A stretch of 64,000 nt of DNA from Lysobacterales bacterium (lineage in GTDB: Bacteria; Pseudomonadota; Gammaproteobacteria; Xanthomonadales; SZUA-5). Every line of letters starts with the position of its first letter. Positions within the stretch are counted from its first letter, which is position 1. The position numbers and the translations under genes are program-made. Positions 1,305-59,658 of the stretch are shown here, one piece after another. The notes under the pieces are model-generated. The model had not been told where the DNA came from. It made no database searches and saw only the letters and a program-made list of their open reading frames with translations. The DNA lies in NCBI GenBank assembly GCA_022844165.1, contig JALHMH010000002.1:192001-256000 (forward strand), written 5' to 3'.

Positions 1305-1363
1305 CAAGTACGGTGTCTGGCGAAGCCAACAATGCTCGGCGGTCTGAGGCGAAGCCTCGCTAA
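1305..1363 (+). repeat. Dispersed repeat, 3'-end fragment
   Basis: CAAGTACGGTGTCTGGCGAAGCCAACAATGCTCGGCGGTCTGAGGCGAAGCCTCGCTAA is nearly identical to 58210-58268. Confidence 0.9.
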
Positions 1364-5609: not shown

Positions 5610-6254
5610 TCAACCCGGCCCATCCGAACGCGGCGCAGCACGCGACATCAGCGCCAGCGGATGACCGTCGAGGTCTTTGAAAAACGCCATCCACTCTTCG
5701 ATGCCATCGGCATGTTTATGGATCATGTGCGGCGCGCTTGCGAACTCGACACCGCGAGATTGCAGAACTCGGTGGGCGGAGTGAATGTCCGGAACCGCGA
5801 AGTACAGGATCGAATGCGCTTCGCCGCCATCGCCCTCTGACAGAAAAAGACGCACACCGTTGCAATCGAAAAATGCCAGTTTGCCGAACGAAAAAAGATG
5901 CGGCAATCCCAGCACATCCCCATACCAGCGCCGCGCTGCCGCGGCATCTTTCACCGTTCGGGCAATCTGCCCGATGGCGCCGAGTTTGAGATCCATTTCG
6001 ATACTCTCCTTGACCGGGCCGAGTGCGCTGGCTCTCGCAACGCCAGTCCATTGCCTGAGTTCCATCCGGCTTTTCAGGCCGAGTTTATGCAGCGCATTGC
6101 CCACGTGATACTTCACCGCATCGATACCCACACCCTGTCTGCTTGCGATCTGTGGGTTGCTCAATCCATGCCGCACTGCTTCGACGACCTTCCATTCGGA
6201 CGGCGTCAACTGATCCTGAAACGGTGGTCGCCCTCGCAAGTGTGTGCGTTTCAT
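5610..6254 (-). CDS. LuxR-type HTH fused to a VOC/glyoxalase domain
   Basis: N-terminal LTPSEWKV...GLSNPQIA...VKYHVGNALHKLG. C-terminal IGQIARTV...WYGDVLGL...MAFFKDLDGHPLALM. Confidence 0.88.
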   Translation of the reverse strand: MKRTHLRGRPPFQDQLTPSEWKVVEAVRHGLSNPQIASRQGVGIDAVKYHVGNALHKLGLKSRMELRQWTGVARASALGPVKESIEMDLKLGAIGQIARTVKDAAAARRWYGDVLGLPHLFSFGKLAFFDCNGVRLFLSEGDGGEAHSILYFAVPDIHSAHRVLQSRGVEFASAPHMIHKHADGIEEWMAFFKDLDGHPLALMSRAAPRSDGPG

Positions 6255-6263
6255 AGGCAGACA

Positions 6264-6502
6264 TTAACGATGCTTCGCCTCAGACCGACGAGTATTGCTG
6301 GCTTCGTTCGACAGCGTACTCGCCACAACCCCGCGCTTCGCATTTCCGGCCCGGCGGCAAAGCCGCCGGTCGTTCGGATCGGCATACGCCTATCGGCGTG
6401 TAAGCGCCGGTCCTCGCCCCCCTTGCTAAAGGGGGCTTCAACAACCCAAGCCGCTTCATAGAAAAATTGACTCATTTGTCAAGATCAGTCTCCGTCAAGA
6501 AC
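6264..6502 (-). repeat. Dispersed repeat, full-length copy
   Basis: The reverse complement runs from TTCTTGACGGAGACTGATCT to GGTCTGAGGCGAAGCATCGTTAA and is collinear with 58023-58270. Confidence 0.92.
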
Positions 6503-6780
6503 ATTAGCCCAACTCACGGCGATTTTCCCTACCCGGTCCGGCGCCGGGCAGGCAACGCATACCCATGCCATCACCCAAGGTGTTGAGCGCTTCCCAGGCG
6601 GTTGCGTCATACTCGCCGCTGCACCCGTCACAGGCACTGGCCGATCGCCGTTGGCGAAGCGCCCATGCCCAACTCGCTGAGCCGGGGCGCGCGGAGAACC
6701 ATGCGCTGGTGTCCGTCGCTTGCAAAGTGGGCGTTGGAAAGCCAGTGTCTCGGAAAATTTCTTATGGCCAACCCGCAAGA

Positions 6781-8010
6781 ATGATCACCATCGCAATTCC
6801 CGCGCGCATGAAGGCGACGCGACTGCCCAACAAACCGCTGCTCGACATTATCGGTCGACCGCTGATCGCCCATGTTATTGACTGCGCACGTCGATTCGAA
6901 GCCGCTGAAATCGTCGTCGCTACGGACGATCTGCGAATCGCCGAGGTCGCCGAGCGCGAAGGTGTGGTCGCCATCCTCACGCGCGAGGATCATCCAACCG
7001 GCAGCGACCGGCTCGCCGAAGTGGCAGATCGCCTGGAGTGGCCGGATACGCAGATCGTCGTGAATCTGCAGGGCGATGAGCCGCTGATGCCGCAGAGTTG
7101 TTTGCGCGCCGTCGTCGATGCACTACGGGGGGACGCTGGGGCGGCCGCCGCAACGCTGGCGATGCGGATCGACAACATCGCCGAAGCGCTCGATCCGAAT
7201 GCCGTCAAAGTGGTGAGCGATCACCAAGGCCGCGCGCTGTACTTCTCGCGCGCGCCGATCCCGTGGCCACGAGACGCCTGGCACACAGCGCAGCGCGAGT
7301 TGCCCGCGGGCGCGCCGATGCGTCGCCATCTGGGTTTGTATGCATACCGCGCCGGCACGCTGCGGCGCTTCGCCGCACTGCCACCTGCGCCGCTGGAGAC
7401 GATCGAGTCGCTGGAACAACTGCGCCTGCTGCATCACGGCTACAAGATCGCCGTACGCGATACGCCGGAGGCGATTCCACCCGGTGTCGATACCCCTGAA
7501 GATCTGGCACGCGTGCGCGCCCACTTTATCGGCGAACAACAGCAGCAAGTCCAACACCGCTGGTTGTTCATGTGTCTGGGCAACATCTGCCGCTCGCCGC
7601 TGGCCGCCGCCTATGCGCGCAAATGCGCAGCCGAGCACGGACTGCGCGTACACATCGAGTCGGCCGGAACCTTGAGCTCGCACGCTGGCGAGCGCGCCGA
7701 TGGCGGCGCGCGCGAGTTGGCGGCCATCGAAGGCGTCGATGTCTCCCAGCACCGCGCCCGGCAAGTTAAAGTCGAAGACTTCGAGCGCTTCGATCAGATT
7801 CTCGCGATGGATGAGCGCAACCTGGCCGACCTGAGCAAGCTCTGCCCACCGCAATACCTGCACAAAGTGCGACTGCTGCTCGACTATGCCCCACATATTG
7901 GTCGCCGCACTGTGCCTGATCCGTACGGTCAGACCCTGAGTGGTTTCCAGAGGTCCTACGAGTTGATTGTCGCTGGCGTTGATGGACTGGTAATGTCGGC
8001 AATGAAATAG
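6781..8010 (+). CDS. kdsB: CMP-KDO synthetase fused to a low-molecular-weight protein-tyrosine phosphatase
   Basis: KdsB part: IPARMKATRLPNKPL, NLQGDEP, ESLEQLR, GVDTPEDL. In-frame LMW-PTP part: CLGNICRSP and VPDPY. Confidence 0.92.
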   Translation: MITIAIPARMKATRLPNKPLLDIIGRPLIAHVIDCARRFEAAEIVVATDDLRIAEVAEREGVVAILTREDHPTGSDRLAEVADRLEWPDTQIVVNLQGDEPLMPQSCLRAVVDALRGDAGAAAATLAMRIDNIAEALDPNAVKVVSDHQGRALYFSRAPIPWPRDAWHTAQRELPAGAPMRRHLGLYAYRAGTLRRFAALPPAPLETIESLEQLRLLHHGYKIAVRDTPEAIPPGVDTPEDLARVRAHFIGEQQQQVQHRWLFMCLGNICRSPLAAAYARKCAAEHGLRVHIESAGTLSSHAGERADGGARELAAIEGVDVSQHRARQVKVEDFERFDQILAMDERNLADLSKLCPPQYLHKVRLLLDYAPHIGRRTVPDPYGQTLSGFQRSYELIVAGVDGLVMSAMK

Positions 8011-37819: not shown

Positions 37820-37950
37820 TGGCGAGGCTGCGCCTGAGCCGCCGAGCATTGTTGGCTTCGCTCGGCAGCGTGCTTTTCACAACCCGCGCTTTTGCATTTC
37901 CGGCCCAGTGGCGCAGTCGCTGGGCGTTCGACTCGGCACGCGCCTGCGGT
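37820..37950 (-). repeat. Dispersed repeat, diverged partial copy
   Basis: GCGAGGCTGCGCCTGAGCCGCCGAGCATTGTTGGCTTCG...CATTTCCGGCCCAG...GCTGGGCGTTCGACTCGGCAC matches 61896-62030. Confidence 0.88.
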
Positions 37951-44242: not shown

Positions 44243-44290
44243 CTGGCGAGGCTTCGTCTCAGTGTACAGATCCGGCTCCGGTCAAGGACT
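44243..44290 (-). repeat. Dispersed repeat, minimal ends-only copy (48 bp)
   Basis: The reverse complement is AGTCCTTGACCGGAGCCGGATCT-gtaca-CTGAGACGAAGCCTCGCCAG, i.e. the two termini joined. Confidence 0.8.
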
Positions 44291-44295
44291 CCAGC

Positions 44296-56994: not shown

Positions 56995-57887
56995 TGCGCG
57001 ATCTTGCCACCGCCCTGCAGCTTTTGTTGCCGCATCGATTGTTGTCGCGTTTGGTGTACTACGCAACGCGTTGGCGATTTGGGCCATGGAAGGCTTTGCT
57101 GATCGGCACGTTAAAGAGCGCTTACGGAATACGGCTCGATGACGCGGTGATCAAAAACACCGCTGAGTTTGAACATTTCAATGCGTTTTTTACCCGTGAG
57201 CTCAGGCCGGATGCGCGCCCCATCGCCAACGGCGCCATCGTTAGTCCTGCAGATGGTAAAGTTTCGCAAGCCGGCCTGGTCCGCGAAGGCCGGATCGTCC
57301 AGGCCAAAGGCATCGATTTTTCAGTCGAAGAGTTGTTGGGTGACGCTGCAGAGGCCGCGTTGTACGACGGCGGCCGCTTTGCGACGATCTATTTGAGCCC
57401 ACGCGATTACCATCGCGTGCATATGCCTCTGGCCGGCACGTTGCGCCGTTCGACGCACATTCCTGGCCGCTTGTTCAGTGTCGCGCCGAAGATCGTCGAA
57501 TCGATCCCTCGCCTGTACGCCCGCAATGAACGCTTGTGCCTGCTGTTCGACACCGAATATGGTCCGATGGCACTGGTCTTTGTCGGTGCGATTTTCGTTT
57601 CCAGCATACAAACTGTGTTCGAAGGCGAAGTCACTCCGCCGTATGCTTCGCGCATCCGCCACCGCGACTTCGAACCCGAACGTGCGCCGCGCTTCGCGAC
57701 CGGGGAAGAAGTGGGTCGCTTCAACATGGGTTCGACGGTGGTCGTGTTACTGCCCAAAGATGCTCCTCCGTGGCTTGAGCTGAAATCAGAAGCGCCGATC
57801 AAAATGGGCGAAGCACTGAGCGTATCACTCGCGATGCTGTCCGTCGCCACTCGAGAACCCGAGCCATTCCCAGGGGAAATCGCATGA
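56991..57887 (+). CDS. psd: Phosphatidylserine decarboxylase proenzyme
   Basis: FNAFFTR, SPADG, YLSPRDYHRVH and the FNMGSTV cleavage motif. Confidence 0.95.
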   Translation: MMRDLATALQLLLPHRLLSRLVYYATRWRFGPWKALLIGTLKSAYGIRLDDAVIKNTAEFEHFNAFFTRELRPDARPIANGAIVSPADGKVSQAGLVREGRIVQAKGIDFSVEELLGDAAEAALYDGGRFATIYLSPRDYHRVHMPLAGTLRRSTHIPGRLFSVAPKIVESIPRLYARNERLCLLFDTEYGPMALVFVGAIFVSSIQTVFEGEVTPPYASRIRHRDFEPERAPRFATGEEVGRFNMGSTVVVLLPKDAPPWLELKSEAPIKMGEALSVSLAMLSVATREPEPFPGEIA

Positions 57888-58022
57888 CCTTATGTCCCGT
57901 TGCACTTGCCGTCGGTTGTCAACGTTGCCCGATCTTCGCCGTGTGCCCGGCGAAGTCGATCATCGGCGATCAACCTAAGGCGCCTAAGAAAAAGACCGAT
58001 GCACCGAGTCGCCGCCGCTAGC

Positions 58023-58445
58023 GTCCTTGATGGAGCCGGATCTTGTCAATTGAGTCTGTTTCTTCGGAGCGGCTTTGGCTTTGGCAGCCCCCTTAAATTA
58101 AGGGGGGTGAAGATCGGCGCTTACACGCCGCAAGGCGTGTGCCGAGCCGAACGACCGGCGGCTGTGCCGCCGGGCCGGAAATGCGCGCAGTGCTCGATGG
58201 GGGTTGTGGCAAGTACGCTGTCTGGCGAAGCCAACAATGCTCGGCGGTCTGAGGCGAAGCCTCGCTATAGTCCTTGACGGAGACTGATCTCGACAAATGA
58301 GTCAAATTTTCGACGAAGCGGCTTTGGCTTTTGAAGCCCCCTTGAGTCAATTGAGTCAAGGGGACGCGCGGAGCGCGGGGTTGTTGCGAGTACGGTGTCG
58401 GACGAAGCCAGCAATGCTCGCCGGTCTGAGGCGAAGCCTCGTTAG
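58023..58445 (+). repeat. Dispersed repeat, head-to-tail tandem of a long (58023-58270) and a short (58270-58445) copy
   Basis: Both begin GTCCTTGA(T/C)GGAG and end GGTCTGAGGCGAAGCCTCG(C/T)TA. Confidence 0.93.
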
Positions 58446-59250
58446 CCTGTGGTTTCTGTCGCTGACAGCGCACGCGCAGAGCTACTTTCAGTGCGGCGAT
58501 CTGGCCGCCCTGGAAAGGGGGCCTGAGGCACTTGGCGAACGGGTCGATCGCGACCTCTGTCGGCGCAGCAACGTTCGTGGCGTCGATACGCTGCACTGCG
58601 AGGGTGTCGCGAAGTCAGCCTTCGGTCTCACAACAAGTGAGGTTTCCGCGAGTGCCGGGATTGGCGGAACACGGCGTCTGACGCTGGTGTTTCGCGCGGG
58701 CAGCGAGCGAGTTCTCGCCGCCGTGGAGCGATCGCTACCGGTCGAGTTTGAGCCCGATGGTGTCGATTGGTTCGCCATCGCGATCGATGATGTGCGTCGG
58801 CGCTTTCGGATCAGCGAGCGCGATGATGGGGCGACGCTGCTCGCATGTGAGCTGACCGGCTCTGCCAATCGCGCGCTCGGAGGCGCTATCGAAGGCCGCT
58901 TGCGCTATGAAAAGGCGGCGCGCGTGAGCACGCGGGTATGCGCGATTCCTGTCGATACCGATTTGCCACTCGCATGCCTTGAGCTGCCGCCTCGACTCAA
59001 ACAGTTCCGGATCGAGGGATTGCCGGCAGCCGCGTACTTTGTCGCCGCGTACCCGCTTCAAGACAATGCCCTCGGCATGGTGGCAGCCTATGCGCGCCGT
59101 CTGCGCGATTGCCATGACCAGCCAGGCTGCGTCGCGGCTCTGATCGTACCGGTCGAGGTGCGCGCGGGTCAGCGCTCCGTGGGAATCGACATCGAACAGC
59201 GTTTCGCCGAAGTGCCCGAACGCGTGCGCCGAGTGCGTCTGGGCCGCTGA
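58414..59250 (+). CDS. Exported hypothetical protein with several Cys; N-terminus lies inside the repeat
   Basis: Signal-peptide-like MLAGLRRSLVSLWFLSLTAHA followed by a 257-aa mature region. The frame is open upstream to 58297. Confidence 0.7.
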   Translation: MLAGLRRSLVSLWFLSLTAHAQSYFQCGDLAALERGPEALGERVDRDLCRRSNVRGVDTLHCEGVAKSAFGLTTSEVSASAGIGGTRRLTLVFRAGSERVLAAVERSLPVEFEPDGVDWFAIAIDDVRRRFRISERDDGATLLACELTGSANRALGGAIEGRLRYEKAARVSTRVCAIPVDTDLPLACLELPPRLKQFRIEGLPAAAYFVAAYPLQDNALGMVAAYARRLRDCHDQPGCVAALIVPVEVRAGQRSVGIDIEQRFAEVPERVRRVRLGR

Positions 59251-59269
59251 TCTTCAGGCAACACGCCCC

Positions 59270-59330
59270 CGAAATTGCGCAGCGCGGATTGTGGCAAGTA
59301 CGGTGTCGGGCGAAGCCAACATCGCCAGGC
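59270..59330 (+). repeat. Dispersed repeat, internal fragment
   Basis: TTGTGGCAAGTACGGTGTCGGGCGAAGCCAACA matches the other copies. Confidence 0.8.
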
Positions 59331-59334
59331 GGTT

Positions 59335-59658
59335 TTATTCGGCGCGCAACATTTCGACGAGCGGTGCCAGGACGCGGCGTTCGATCTGGAATTGTCCCTT
59401 GAACTTCTCCAACGCCTTGGCGCGCATGGCCGGCGCAAACTCACGCAGGTATCGCGTTAAACTGTTGTGGCTGTCTAAGCGATAGGCGACGACCAGCCGC
59501 TGATGCTCGCTATCTTCCTGCTCGGGCTCGACGACAAAAACCTCAGCGCTGACGAATCCGGGCAGGGTCAGCAACTCACGCACGTGCTCGCCCAGCCATC
59601 CGCGATACTCATCAGCAATGGCGTTGCGTACGGTGATGTTGACCTCATAAACAAGCAT
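59335..59658 (-). CDS. DUF4286 family protein
   Basis: MLVYEVNI...WLGEHVRELLTLPGF...YLREFAPAMR. Confidence 0.8.
   Translation of the reverse strand: MLVYEVNITVRNAIADEYRGWLGEHVRELLTLPGFVSAEVFVVEPEQEDSEHQRLVVAYRLDSHNSLTRYLREFAPAMRAKALEKFKGQFQIERRVLAPLVEMLRAE

Follow-up and report, generated by a model that had tools for sequence, protein, structure and literature searches.

The stretch analysed here, called the window throughout, comprises 64,000 nt (64 kb) of the genome of a Lysobacterales bacterium and corresponds to C2:192001-256000 of an assembly of 4.68 Mb in 59 contigs with 60.5% G+C. At positions 58022-58445 of the window lies a dispersed, hairpin-rich repeat, present as two units in head-to-tail arrangement directly behind a CTAG. 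The first is a long unit composed of three modules (L, M and R), and the second is a short unit composed of L and R. An earlier note, made from the letters of this DNA, had reported a dispersed multi-copy repeat at ten coordinates in the window. Nine of these were recovered by a repeat search together with an nhmmer profile built from 57 full-length genomic copies, and the tenth (44243) was recognized by eye. In the window, the profile gives 10 hits at six loci, comprising eight units or fragments. The copies and their parts are listed below, the tandem at 58022-58445 first; the genome called G001 belongs to the sole other species of the genus.

58018..58021, + strand: target CTAG, left flank of the tandem; from the sequence read; the orthologous G001 site is one CTAG with no element
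58022..58268, + strand: long unit L-M-R, ~245 bp, with its terminal tetranucleotide (here CTAT); nhmmer 58020-58267, profile 2-243, E 6e-76
58108..58182, + strand: M module, a double-hairpin block of ~75 nt, found in long forms and not in short ones
58251-58263, + strand: terminal hairpin GAGGC-GAA-GCCTC of the long unit; from the alignment of 57 genomic copies
58269..58445, + strand: short unit L-R, ~175 bp, abutting the long unit head-to-tail and ending ..GCCTCG-TTAG; nhmmer 58268-58356 (profile 3-91) and 58368-58445 (profile 167-244)
6265..6504, - strand: complete long unit between divergent open reading frames (ORFs; 5610-6254 on - and 6565-8010 on +); nhmmer E 6e-73 and ORF list
61897..62231, - strand: M-R unit (61897-62063) and L-R unit (62063-62231) in tandem; nhmmer and inverted-repeat pairs
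37820..37949, - strand: truncated unit, part of M plus R; nhmmer profile 112-243, E 1e-27
59217..59337, + strand: degenerate partial unit; nhmmer profile 114-228, E 6e-12
1305..1362, + strand: solo R-end fragment; nhmmer profile 186-243, E 8e-15
44243..44294, - strand: 44-bp micro-copy of the two termini only (R-terminal hairpin and L terminus); by eye, below the nhmmer threshold

In the tandem at 58022-58445, the second unit is 80% identical to the first in L and 88% in R. This divergence, compared for the window tandem only among the arrays, argues that the two units are separate insertions of equal polarity and not a local duplication. The TAG of the target CTAG (58018..58021) is the stop codon of a small ORF at 57884-58021. 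This Cys-rich ORF of 45 codons keeps 84% DNA identity in G001. The placing of all copies at gene boundaries, also claimed earlier, was followed at the window copies 6265 and 58020 only, and the claim reaches no further than these two. Contigs of four public DNA metagenome runs, placed on 57400-59100, break up at the repeat and span neither of its flanks; some join 58106/58107 to 58183, skipping 75-76 nt, and thus represent M-less joints. The micro-copy at 44243 reads CTGG/CGAGGCTTCGTCTCAG..GATCCGGCTCCGGTCAAGGACT/CCAG, where a slash, here and below, marks an element border.

Anatomy of the repeat across the genome

A blastn search of the genome with 58023-58270 returned 298 high-scoring segment pairs, 57 of them near full-length. 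The nhmmer profile returned 331 hits at 227 loci, together covering 39,484 bp or 0.84% of the genome. About 20 of the 227 loci, in which M occurs alone, belong to a second repeat family, leaving ~200 loci for the family studied here. Along the profile, the modules occupy positions ~1-88 (L), ~89-165 (M) and ~166-244 (R). The principal architectures are L-M-R (47 instances, 245 bp) and L-R (35 instances, 170 bp), and solo or truncated modules and tandem arrays are found as well. The distinction drawn earlier between long and short forms that differ by a central block therefore holds, the block being the ~75-nt M at about 58108-58182. The M palindrome also occurs in other genera of the bacterial family, and the layout of M recurs, with a different sequence, inside the second repeat family. 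Beside one L-M copy, at C45:18301-19064, ~10 M-like units of ~82 nt each are arrayed in tandem, with an N gap.

Each unit is laid out as CTAG/AGTCCTTGA...GAGGCGAAGCCTCG-YTAG/, and the 57 aligned copies read CTAG/AGTCCTTGACGG ... GGTCTGAGGCGAAGCCTCG-CTAG/. The termini, AGTCCTTGA... and ...GCCTCG, have no inverted-repeat relation in this alignment beyond the flanking CTAG, confirming that the ends are fixed and are not inverted repeats of each other. It is these termini, not the interior, that are conserved. The tetramer preceding the L end is CTAG at 75 of 155 ends, followed by CCAG (17), CTGG (11) and TTAG (9), and the final tetramer of the R end is CTAG at 71 of 184 ends, followed by TTAG (26), CCAG (26), CTGG (12) and CTAA (11). 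The same non-CTAG tetramer stands on the left and on the right in 11 of 118 complete units, compared with 3.6 expected by shuffling (p = 0.0002), and neighbours in an array have one tetramer in common. Copies are present in both orientations in the genome, and all 20 abutting junctions are head-to-tail, joining an R end to an L end, with no head-to-head and no tail-to-tail junction (p = 2e-6). The head-to-tail tandems reported for the window are thus found genome-wide.

CTAG is scarce in this genome, with 1390 occurrences compared with 3334 expected under a second-order Markov model (ratio 0.42). About 200 of the 1390 abut repeat ends, i.e., 65 L ends, 71 R ends and 64 ends of the second family, so the repeats bear on the CTAG scarcity of the genome.

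The hairpins described earlier are real, and the excess of folding in single-stranded DNA is modest, with z = -2.6 for the + strand and -1.9 for the - strand. At the CCGGCGGC hairpin, the pair taken earlier for a compensatory change was scored in 55 of 56 copies, giving 31 G-C, 20 G-T, 1 changed on both sides and 3 non-standard. Within the genome, change at this pair is mostly one-sided, and the case for compensation is weaker than had been stated. An RNAalifold consensus structure of 56 long copies, which omits some of the hairpins proposed earlier, contains 12 both-sided changes and 74 broken cells. No Rfam family matches the window at the gathering score, and a search of 57950-58500 at E <= 10 yielded one chance-level row only.

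Movement of the repeat and its neighbouring families

Near-identical copies (97.5-99.5%) are found in unrelated flanks. The median nearest-neighbour identity is 0.96 among 55 short units, 14 of which reach at least 0.98, and 0.93 among 56 long units. Flanks of 40 nt were compared for the 13 closest pairs, which reach an identity of up to 0.995: 11 pairs are unrelated on both sides (0.17-0.47 identity) and two have a common left flank (0.93 and 0.65), the 0.93 pair sitting at contig ends. The short copies have spread recently.

Filled and empty sites were found between species. Any match to the repeat is present in 13 of 39 genomes (the source genome and 38 relatives), and the full element beyond the source genome is found only in G001, at 81% identity and in fewer copies, the matches elsewhere in the bacterial family being to the M palindrome alone. 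The window tandem at 58022-58445 is missing in G001, where its flanks meet at a single CTAG, ...TCGCCGCCG-CTAG-CGCGCTG..., compared with CTAG/unit/unit-TTAG/ in the source genome. At this one precisely resolved site (window 58018-58021), CTAG is the insertion target. In the reverse comparison, 10 element loci were fetched from G001, of which four are empty at the syntenic site of the source genome, one is ambiguous and the rest lack clean synteny. The flanks of the window copies at 6265, 37820 and 61897 map to different G001 contigs. Collectively, the filled and empty sites between species and the unrelated flanks of near-identical copies bear out the earlier proposal of a non-autonomous mobile element.

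Two other repeat families were observed next to the one studied here. The second repeat, ~237 bp, is found at C1:242062-242298, C6:154235-154477, C34:49087-49324 and C27:31053-31289, and 16 of its 18 matches agree with the C1 copy at 97-99.5% identity. This repeat is bounded by true terminal inverted repeats, TGTGGTGTTCCGTCATTAAGTTGAAC ... GTTCAAGGTCATTACGGAACACCACA, with CTAG on both sides, its ends reading CTAG/TGTGGTGTTCC...GGAACACCACA/CTAG, and it often abuts the studied element. The third repeat, ~160 bp and of the form CTAG/CAGGCTGTTGAG...CAACAACGTG/CTAG, is found at C1:242295-242456 and at ~20 other sites. At C11:121911-122027, an end CTAG/TGTGGTGTCCCAAAAATAAC... runs off the contig beside a DDE_Tnp_1 gene, the contig stopping just inside what appears to be another insertion sequence (IS). 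An autonomous partner of the second repeat family, left unassembled, may begin here.

A gene-bearing parent element and its protein

The R-end 19-mer occurs in at least 107 contig stretches, with one genome per species, compared with ~4 expected by chance on a uniform-composition estimate. Carriers among the matches listed include Acidobacteriota, Planctomycetota, Verrucomicrobiota, Chromatiaceae, Chloroflexota and others, and several organisms hold more than one copy. Among the 112 matches listed, the word that follows the 19-mer is CTAG in 60, TTAG in 27, CTGG in 8, CTAA in 7 and another in 10, and sequence conservation stops after this tetramer; CTCGTC precedes the 19-mer in 58 of the 112. 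Fourteen of the matches listed are short elements with other interiors and have an L-like end (YTAG/AGTCCTTGA..N..TGAGTCAAGTTT) 90-305 bp upstream. In four more of those listed, this end lies 1844-1867 bp upstream of the R end, with one long ORF between the two ends, on the strand opposite to the repeat orientation of the earlier note.

The same ends were recovered from the side of the protein. With the protein as the only query, 80 metagenome loci were obtained; the hairpin end is present in 66 of them, the other end in 61 and the two together in 50, and the median length of these 50 elements is 1811 bp. Of 85 gene-bearing loci, 69 are matched at the hairpin end by the repeat profile of the source genome, and three at the more variable L end. 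Judged by sequence, the ends of the repeat are identical with the ends of this gene-bearing element of ~1.8 kb, hereafter the parent. The parent is common in many bacterial phyla, yet it carries no annotation as a mobile element.

Read in gene orientation, the parent begins with CTAR/CGAGGC-NNN-GCCTCAGACCGACGAG, followed by a leader of ~110 nt, a single gene encoding ~533 amino acids (aa) and its stop codon. On the 3' side, the AAACTTGACTCA box stands beside the stop codon and is followed by 21-41 nt (29-30 in 52 of 61), including CAAG near the tip, and then by YTAG. The GC-rich hairpin with a GNA triloop is located one base from the terminus. Its stem is GAGGC with GCCTC in 64 of 66 parents and GAGGT with ACCTC in the other two, a compensatory change, and its loop occurs in eight variants, mostly GNA on the other strand. 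Short elements retain ~45 nt of the L end and ~33 nt of the R end of the parent. In 50 elements, the flanking words are CTAA on one side and CTAG on the other in 34 cases and CTAG on both in eight. The two sides thus differ, indicating that the base beside the hairpin end belongs to the element and excluding a simple 4-bp duplication; to judge from these words, any target duplication would possibly be TA or TAG at most, or nothing. A copy on plasmid pSBC2-3 of Caballeronia sp. SBC2 (L195, 554081-555888) has the same complete ends and an in-frame TAA early in the ORF, the remainder of which is labelled "hypothetical protein" in RefSeq.

Several further observations concern the parent. Its 5' leader, aligned from 31 elements (e.g., L117:246-423), is closed by GGCTCCGGTCGA...TCGACCGGAGCC and stops 4-8 nt short of the start codon. 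In the closing stem, both sides have changed in seven of the ten pairs, and the inner hairpins (GGACCG-CGAAG-CGGT, GGTCCCGAAGGACC) vary. The leader has no Rfam match and is not present in short elements; it may serve in translation control or act as a functional RNA belonging to the element. In two metagenome loci, L169 and L174, the sequence directly upstream of the leader contains two hairpin ends that face each other ~40 nt apart, the first in gene orientation and the second its reverse complement ending ...CCTCG-TTAG, an arrangement that resembles a palindromic mini-element or else an alternative layout of the ends. A group II intron (Rfam RF02003, 93.6 bits) begins just past the 3' end of the parent at L151:1801-1940.

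The 533-aa protein matches no family of Pfam, NCBIfam or PHROG at E 0.001, the best row being a PHROG of unknown function at E 0.005. A PDB sequence search with its profile gave no match at E 0.1, only chance-level rows, and 40 diverse members gave only faint winged-helix hits. It bears no HUH, DDE or IS110 signature. The family is large: all 8000 scored clusters match, giving at least 8000, and 14,501 representatives match at E <= 1e-3 and 1,879 at E <= 1e-30. Many members lie on contigs of ~1.8 kb. Among the 120 clusters listed, three are named by any source, all as "hypothetical protein", as are all 30 nearest clusters in the ESM Atlas. There are 27 matching plasmid records, 17 of them from Rhodococcus, and under the match the 25 listed comprise 14 hypothetical or uncharacterized proteins, one ArsR family regulator and 10 with no feature or annotation. 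RefSeq plasmids of Rhodococcus, the Burkholderia group and Mycobacterium likewise carry the family under the label "hypothetical protein".

A first AlphaFold run with a shallow alignment (38 sequences, at least 65% identity) reached a predicted local distance difference test score (pLDDT) of 59.9, with only the winged helix usable. The final run, on a diverse alignment (A2, 28-81% identity), gave a pLDDT of 86.5 and a predicted template modelling score (pTM) of 0.75. In this model, residues 17-377 align to whole TATA-binding proteins (TBPs), best to 1mp9_B (Z 9.2, root mean square deviation 4.2, 179 of 189 residues), with ~15 more TBP entries at Z 7.7-8.2, and residues 382-510 form a PadR/MarR-like winged helix (Z 9.3-9.5). 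The best PDB row in Foldseek is the Rep_trans initiator RepSTK1 (4cij_D; E 2.9e-3, probability 0.84). A viral structure library gave six rows at E <= 1e-3, the best at E 6.6e-6, and its wider list holds TBPs and Inoviridae replication proteins, including A0A345MNV4 (E 2e-2), a protein named as a Rep_trans initiator in PMC13107129. According to the same paper, archaeal Rep-Arvir proteins combine a TBP-fold nuclease with a MarR-like winged helix, act on a conserved hairpin and show the same spectrum of viral-library hits, and PMC4797284 describes the Rep_trans catalytic domain as a 10-strand crescent with TBP connectivity and internal symmetry. In the A2 alignment, D23, D152, Y327-x-K329 and R335-x-E337 are near-invariant and fall on modelled beta strands. 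Their order, D, D, YxK, RxE, is that of Rep_trans motifs N'(D), I(RxD), III(YxKxxE) and IV(W/LxRxE). PMC5714925, which sets out these motifs together with motif II, also places the tyrosine on a strand, and the roles it names are in replication and conjugation only. The model is thus suggestive, though not proof, of a protein built from a TBP-like crescent and a winged helix and akin to Rep_trans/Rep-Arvir initiators. That the D/D/Y/E residues form one catalytic site is a putative assignment, suggested by their order on modelled strands only.

Candidate mover, competing explanations and known systems

The best explanation of the repeat, to which we assign a probability of roughly 0.8, is that it consists of non-autonomous transposable elements that keep both ends of the ~1.8-kb IS-like parent, with lineage-specific hairpin filler between them, and that are moved in trans. 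Short elements with the ends of the parent insert at CTAG, with fixed polarity beside resident ends; from here on, the scheme is a proposal. The 533-aa protein would be the transposase. Its C-terminal winged helix would bind the end or its hairpin and set the crescent domain on the hairpin end, which fits the earlier idea that hairpins, not terminal inverted repeats, are recognized. The N-terminal TBP-like crescent would then nick at the hairpin-adjacent YTAG (G/YTAG) and rejoin at CTAG, with a chemistry that may be that of Rep_trans initiators, Y327 (of YxK) serving as nucleophile and the acidic D/D/E residues as metal site. Such an enzyme would read one strand in one direction, making the process polar like that of a rolling-circle or strand-transfer transposon, and a polar process would explain the head-to-tail arrays. 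The short elements would be moved in trans by a parent copy that was lost to assembly filtering or was recently lost from the organism.

More tentatively, with odds that we place slightly short of even, the 533-aa protein may be the founding member of a new class of prokaryotic transposase, a non-HUH tyrosine nickase of TBP fold that reads the GNA-triloop hairpin of one element end through its winged helix and transfers strands in a polar manner at CTAG. In that case, the parent would represent a very abundant cross-phylum IS family (at least 14,500 protein clusters at 50% identity) that annotation pipelines overlook altogether, and the window repeats would be its gene-less derivatives.

Several results weigh against this account. 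The gene for the 533-aa protein was found neither in a six-frame hidden Markov model (HMM) search of the assembly, where the best row has E 0.5, nor in any of the 39 genomes; the same HMM pipeline gave E 1e-179 to 1e-252 on four gene-bearing control loci. A search for a resident parent by its ends found seven far-apart L/R pairs in the genome, 171-7242 bp apart. The gene is missing from the assembly although some copies of the repeat differ by 1 base in 184, so that we infer mobilisation in trans rather than see it. No contig of this assembly is shorter than 13,362 bp, and 18 of the profile hits are found no more than 150 nt from where a contig stops. Such filtering would remove a repeat contig of 1.8 kb, and the gene is therefore missing from the assembly but not necessarily from the organism. 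As to the protein, none of the 40 diverse members matches PF02486 (Rep_trans) or PF25227 (DUF7845) at E <= 0.01, and the motif match is partial, with YxKE instead of YxKxxE and no clear motif II. The fold scores are middling (Z 8-9 compared with the tool's background of 7-8, and only E 2.9e-3 for RepSTK1), and RepSTK1 is not among the 50 best VIA-align rows. The flanking tetramers do not fix the chemistry, being compatible with no duplication or with one of TA or TAG, as DDE enzymes typically make. Finally, copies show no orientation bias relative to GC skew, with 93 of 194 loci in + orientation on the G-rich strand (p = 0.6), in a test whose power is limited by the weak GC skew of the genome (median absolute value 0.016). 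A route through single-stranded DNA stays open, and a lagging-strand route like that of IS608 is counter-indicated by this unbiased orientation.

The competing explanation that survives best, though an unlikely one, is that a host-encoded or unrelated enzyme acts on the ends and that the 533-aa protein is an accessory or regulatory DNA-binding passenger. It would account for copies up to 99.5% identical in unrelated flanks in an assembly with no family gene, and the conservation of the ends could indicate a host factor: the protein has diverged to 28-60% identity, whereas the hairpin stem is identical in 64 of 66 parents. One distant plasmid homologue is, moreover, annotated as an ArsR-family regulator. 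However, the 1.8-kb unit contains this gene only, and many members lie on contigs of about that length, as multi-copy repeats do. The near-invariant D, E, Y, K and R residues fall on predicted strands of the crescent, as the residues of a catalytic site would, and the loss of 1.8-kb repeat contigs from an assembly with none under 13,362 bp offers another reason for the missing gene.

Less probable still is a CTAG-targeting DDE transposase of the IS630/Tc1-mariner or IS5 type, which would also move the neighbouring inverted-repeat family. The target CTAG, with its possible TA or TAG duplication, would suit such an enzyme, as would the second and third repeats, which are also at CTAG and often abut the studied element, and the DDE_Tnp_1 gene beside an inverted-repeat end of this kind on C11. 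Yet the studied element lacks terminal inverted repeats, its termini agreeing by eye at six of nine positions at best, and an enzyme that inserts symmetrically at a palindromic site should leave junctions of either orientation, not 20 of 20 head-to-tail. The protein linked to the ends has no DDE family hit, and no DDE_3 gene was found in the genome, where the search for a mobilising enzyme gave two rve genes and the one DDE_Tnp_1 besides a single Y1_Tnp.

The earlier note rightly placed the mobilising enzyme outside the window, and had looked to RAYT, Y1 and other HUH enzymes or to IS110 for it. A palindromic element derived from REP/REPIN or IS200/IS605 and moved by a Y1 HUH enzyme (RAYT/TnpA) would share the hairpin-rich, non-inverted ends and the fixed flanking tetranucleotide of IS608-type elements, and the genome does hold one Y1_Tnp gene, of IS200/RAYT-like type (C48:21393-21728; gene at 1483-1932 of C48:19893-23228; 149 aa). 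This gene, however, is flanked by a different palindrome, CCCAGGGC..GCCCTGGG, and by direct repeats of its own 3' end; contig C48 carries no copy of the studied repeat, and no match to TnpB (PF07282) was found in the genome. The C48 gene is a separate REP-type system, unrelated to the studied repeat. The two ends of the repeat carry different hairpins, orientation is unbiased, and what other genomes encode between such ends is no HUH protein. This explanation, which we consider scarcely credible, is not supported, and neither is IS110, of which the 533-aa protein bears no signature. Just as remote is an immobile multi-copy structured RNA or regulatory/terminator module kept for an RNA function, for which the stable hairpins, the similar layout of an M block of different sequence in another repeat, and the G-T pairs tolerated at one stem on the + strand only (20 of 55 scored copies) might speak, and against which stand the lack of an Rfam match, copies in both orientations, filled and empty sites between species, the conservation of termini rather than interior, and weak covariation within the genome.

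The recognition of such elements is of practical consequence. IS annotation keys on the transposase, so that a family matching no model stays invisible, and its short derivatives, here 0.84% of a genome, pass for unexplained intergenic repeats. Parent and repeats can be annotated by the rule CTAR/CGAGGC-NNN-GCCTCAGACC ... AAACTTGACTCA-N(21-41, mostly 29-30)-YTAG. No description of the element or of its terminal hairpin 13-mer, GAGGCGAAGCCTC, was found in the literature searched, a search that did not extend to ISfinder and supplements. If the proposed scheme is true, a compact one-protein system specific for a hairpin and CTAG would be open to study.

BIME, ERIC and RIME are mosaic intergenic repeats of proteobacteria, modular and hairpin-rich, with long and short forms. 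The studied repeat resembles them in all these respects, being modular, hairpin-rich and intergenic with long and short forms, but its termini are traceable to a gene-bearing parent that is common across phyla. With IS630/Tc1-mariner elements and their MITEs (miniature transposable elements with inverted repeats), it shares the CTAG insertion site and possibly a TA duplication, and differs from the former by its lack of terminal inverted repeats and of a DDE_3 protein and by its strictly polar tandems, and from a classical MITE by the lack of terminal inverted repeats. Hairpin recognition, a tetranucleotide target in the flank and abundant small non-autonomous copies recall IS200/IS605 and REPIN/RAYT systems. 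In contrast to these, there is no linked Y1 enzyme, the two ends differ in structure and no strand bias is seen. Units are 170-245 bp long with distinct L and R ends, unlike the short palindromes in inverted doublets of REPINs, and the 533-aa protein encoded between the ends, at four genome loci and at 50 of the 80 from metagenomes, hits neither Y1_Tnp nor TnpB, unlike that of IS200/IS605.

IS91/ISCR elements and Helitrons, which use HUH Y2 enzymes, have asymmetric ends without terminal inverted repeats, a GC-rich hairpin inside one terminus, a tetranucleotide target, polar tandems and end-only derivatives. The studied repeat is like them in its asymmetric ends, the hairpin near one terminus, the tetranucleotide target, the polar tandems and the end-only derivatives; the 3' hairpin of Helitrons is mentioned in the abstract of PMC4778049. 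The studied repeat differs in that the parent encodes a protein that hits no HUH or helicase family and is predicted to form a TBP-like crescent instead of a HUH fold. In addition, YTAG stands on both sides of the element, whereas IS91 has its target on one side, and the parent measures only 1.8 kb.

The closest likeness of the protein itself is to Rep_trans/MOB_T (PF02486) and Rep-Arvir enzymes, with which it would share the predicted TBP-like 10-strand crescent, the strand tyrosine and the acidic residues in the same order; with Rep-Arvir, it would also share the MarR/PadR-like winged helix after the crescent and the conserved DNA hairpin beside the gene. There is, however, no similarity to these enzymes at the sequence level, and the literature consulted on them names plasmids, phages and conjugative elements as carriers, and no transposase. 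By contrast, the parent is chromosomal and multi-copy, with two defined ends and gene-less derivatives, and thus behaves as an IS. If the kinship with Rep_trans is true, TBP-fold nickases would span replication, conjugation and transposition, just as HUH enzymes do.

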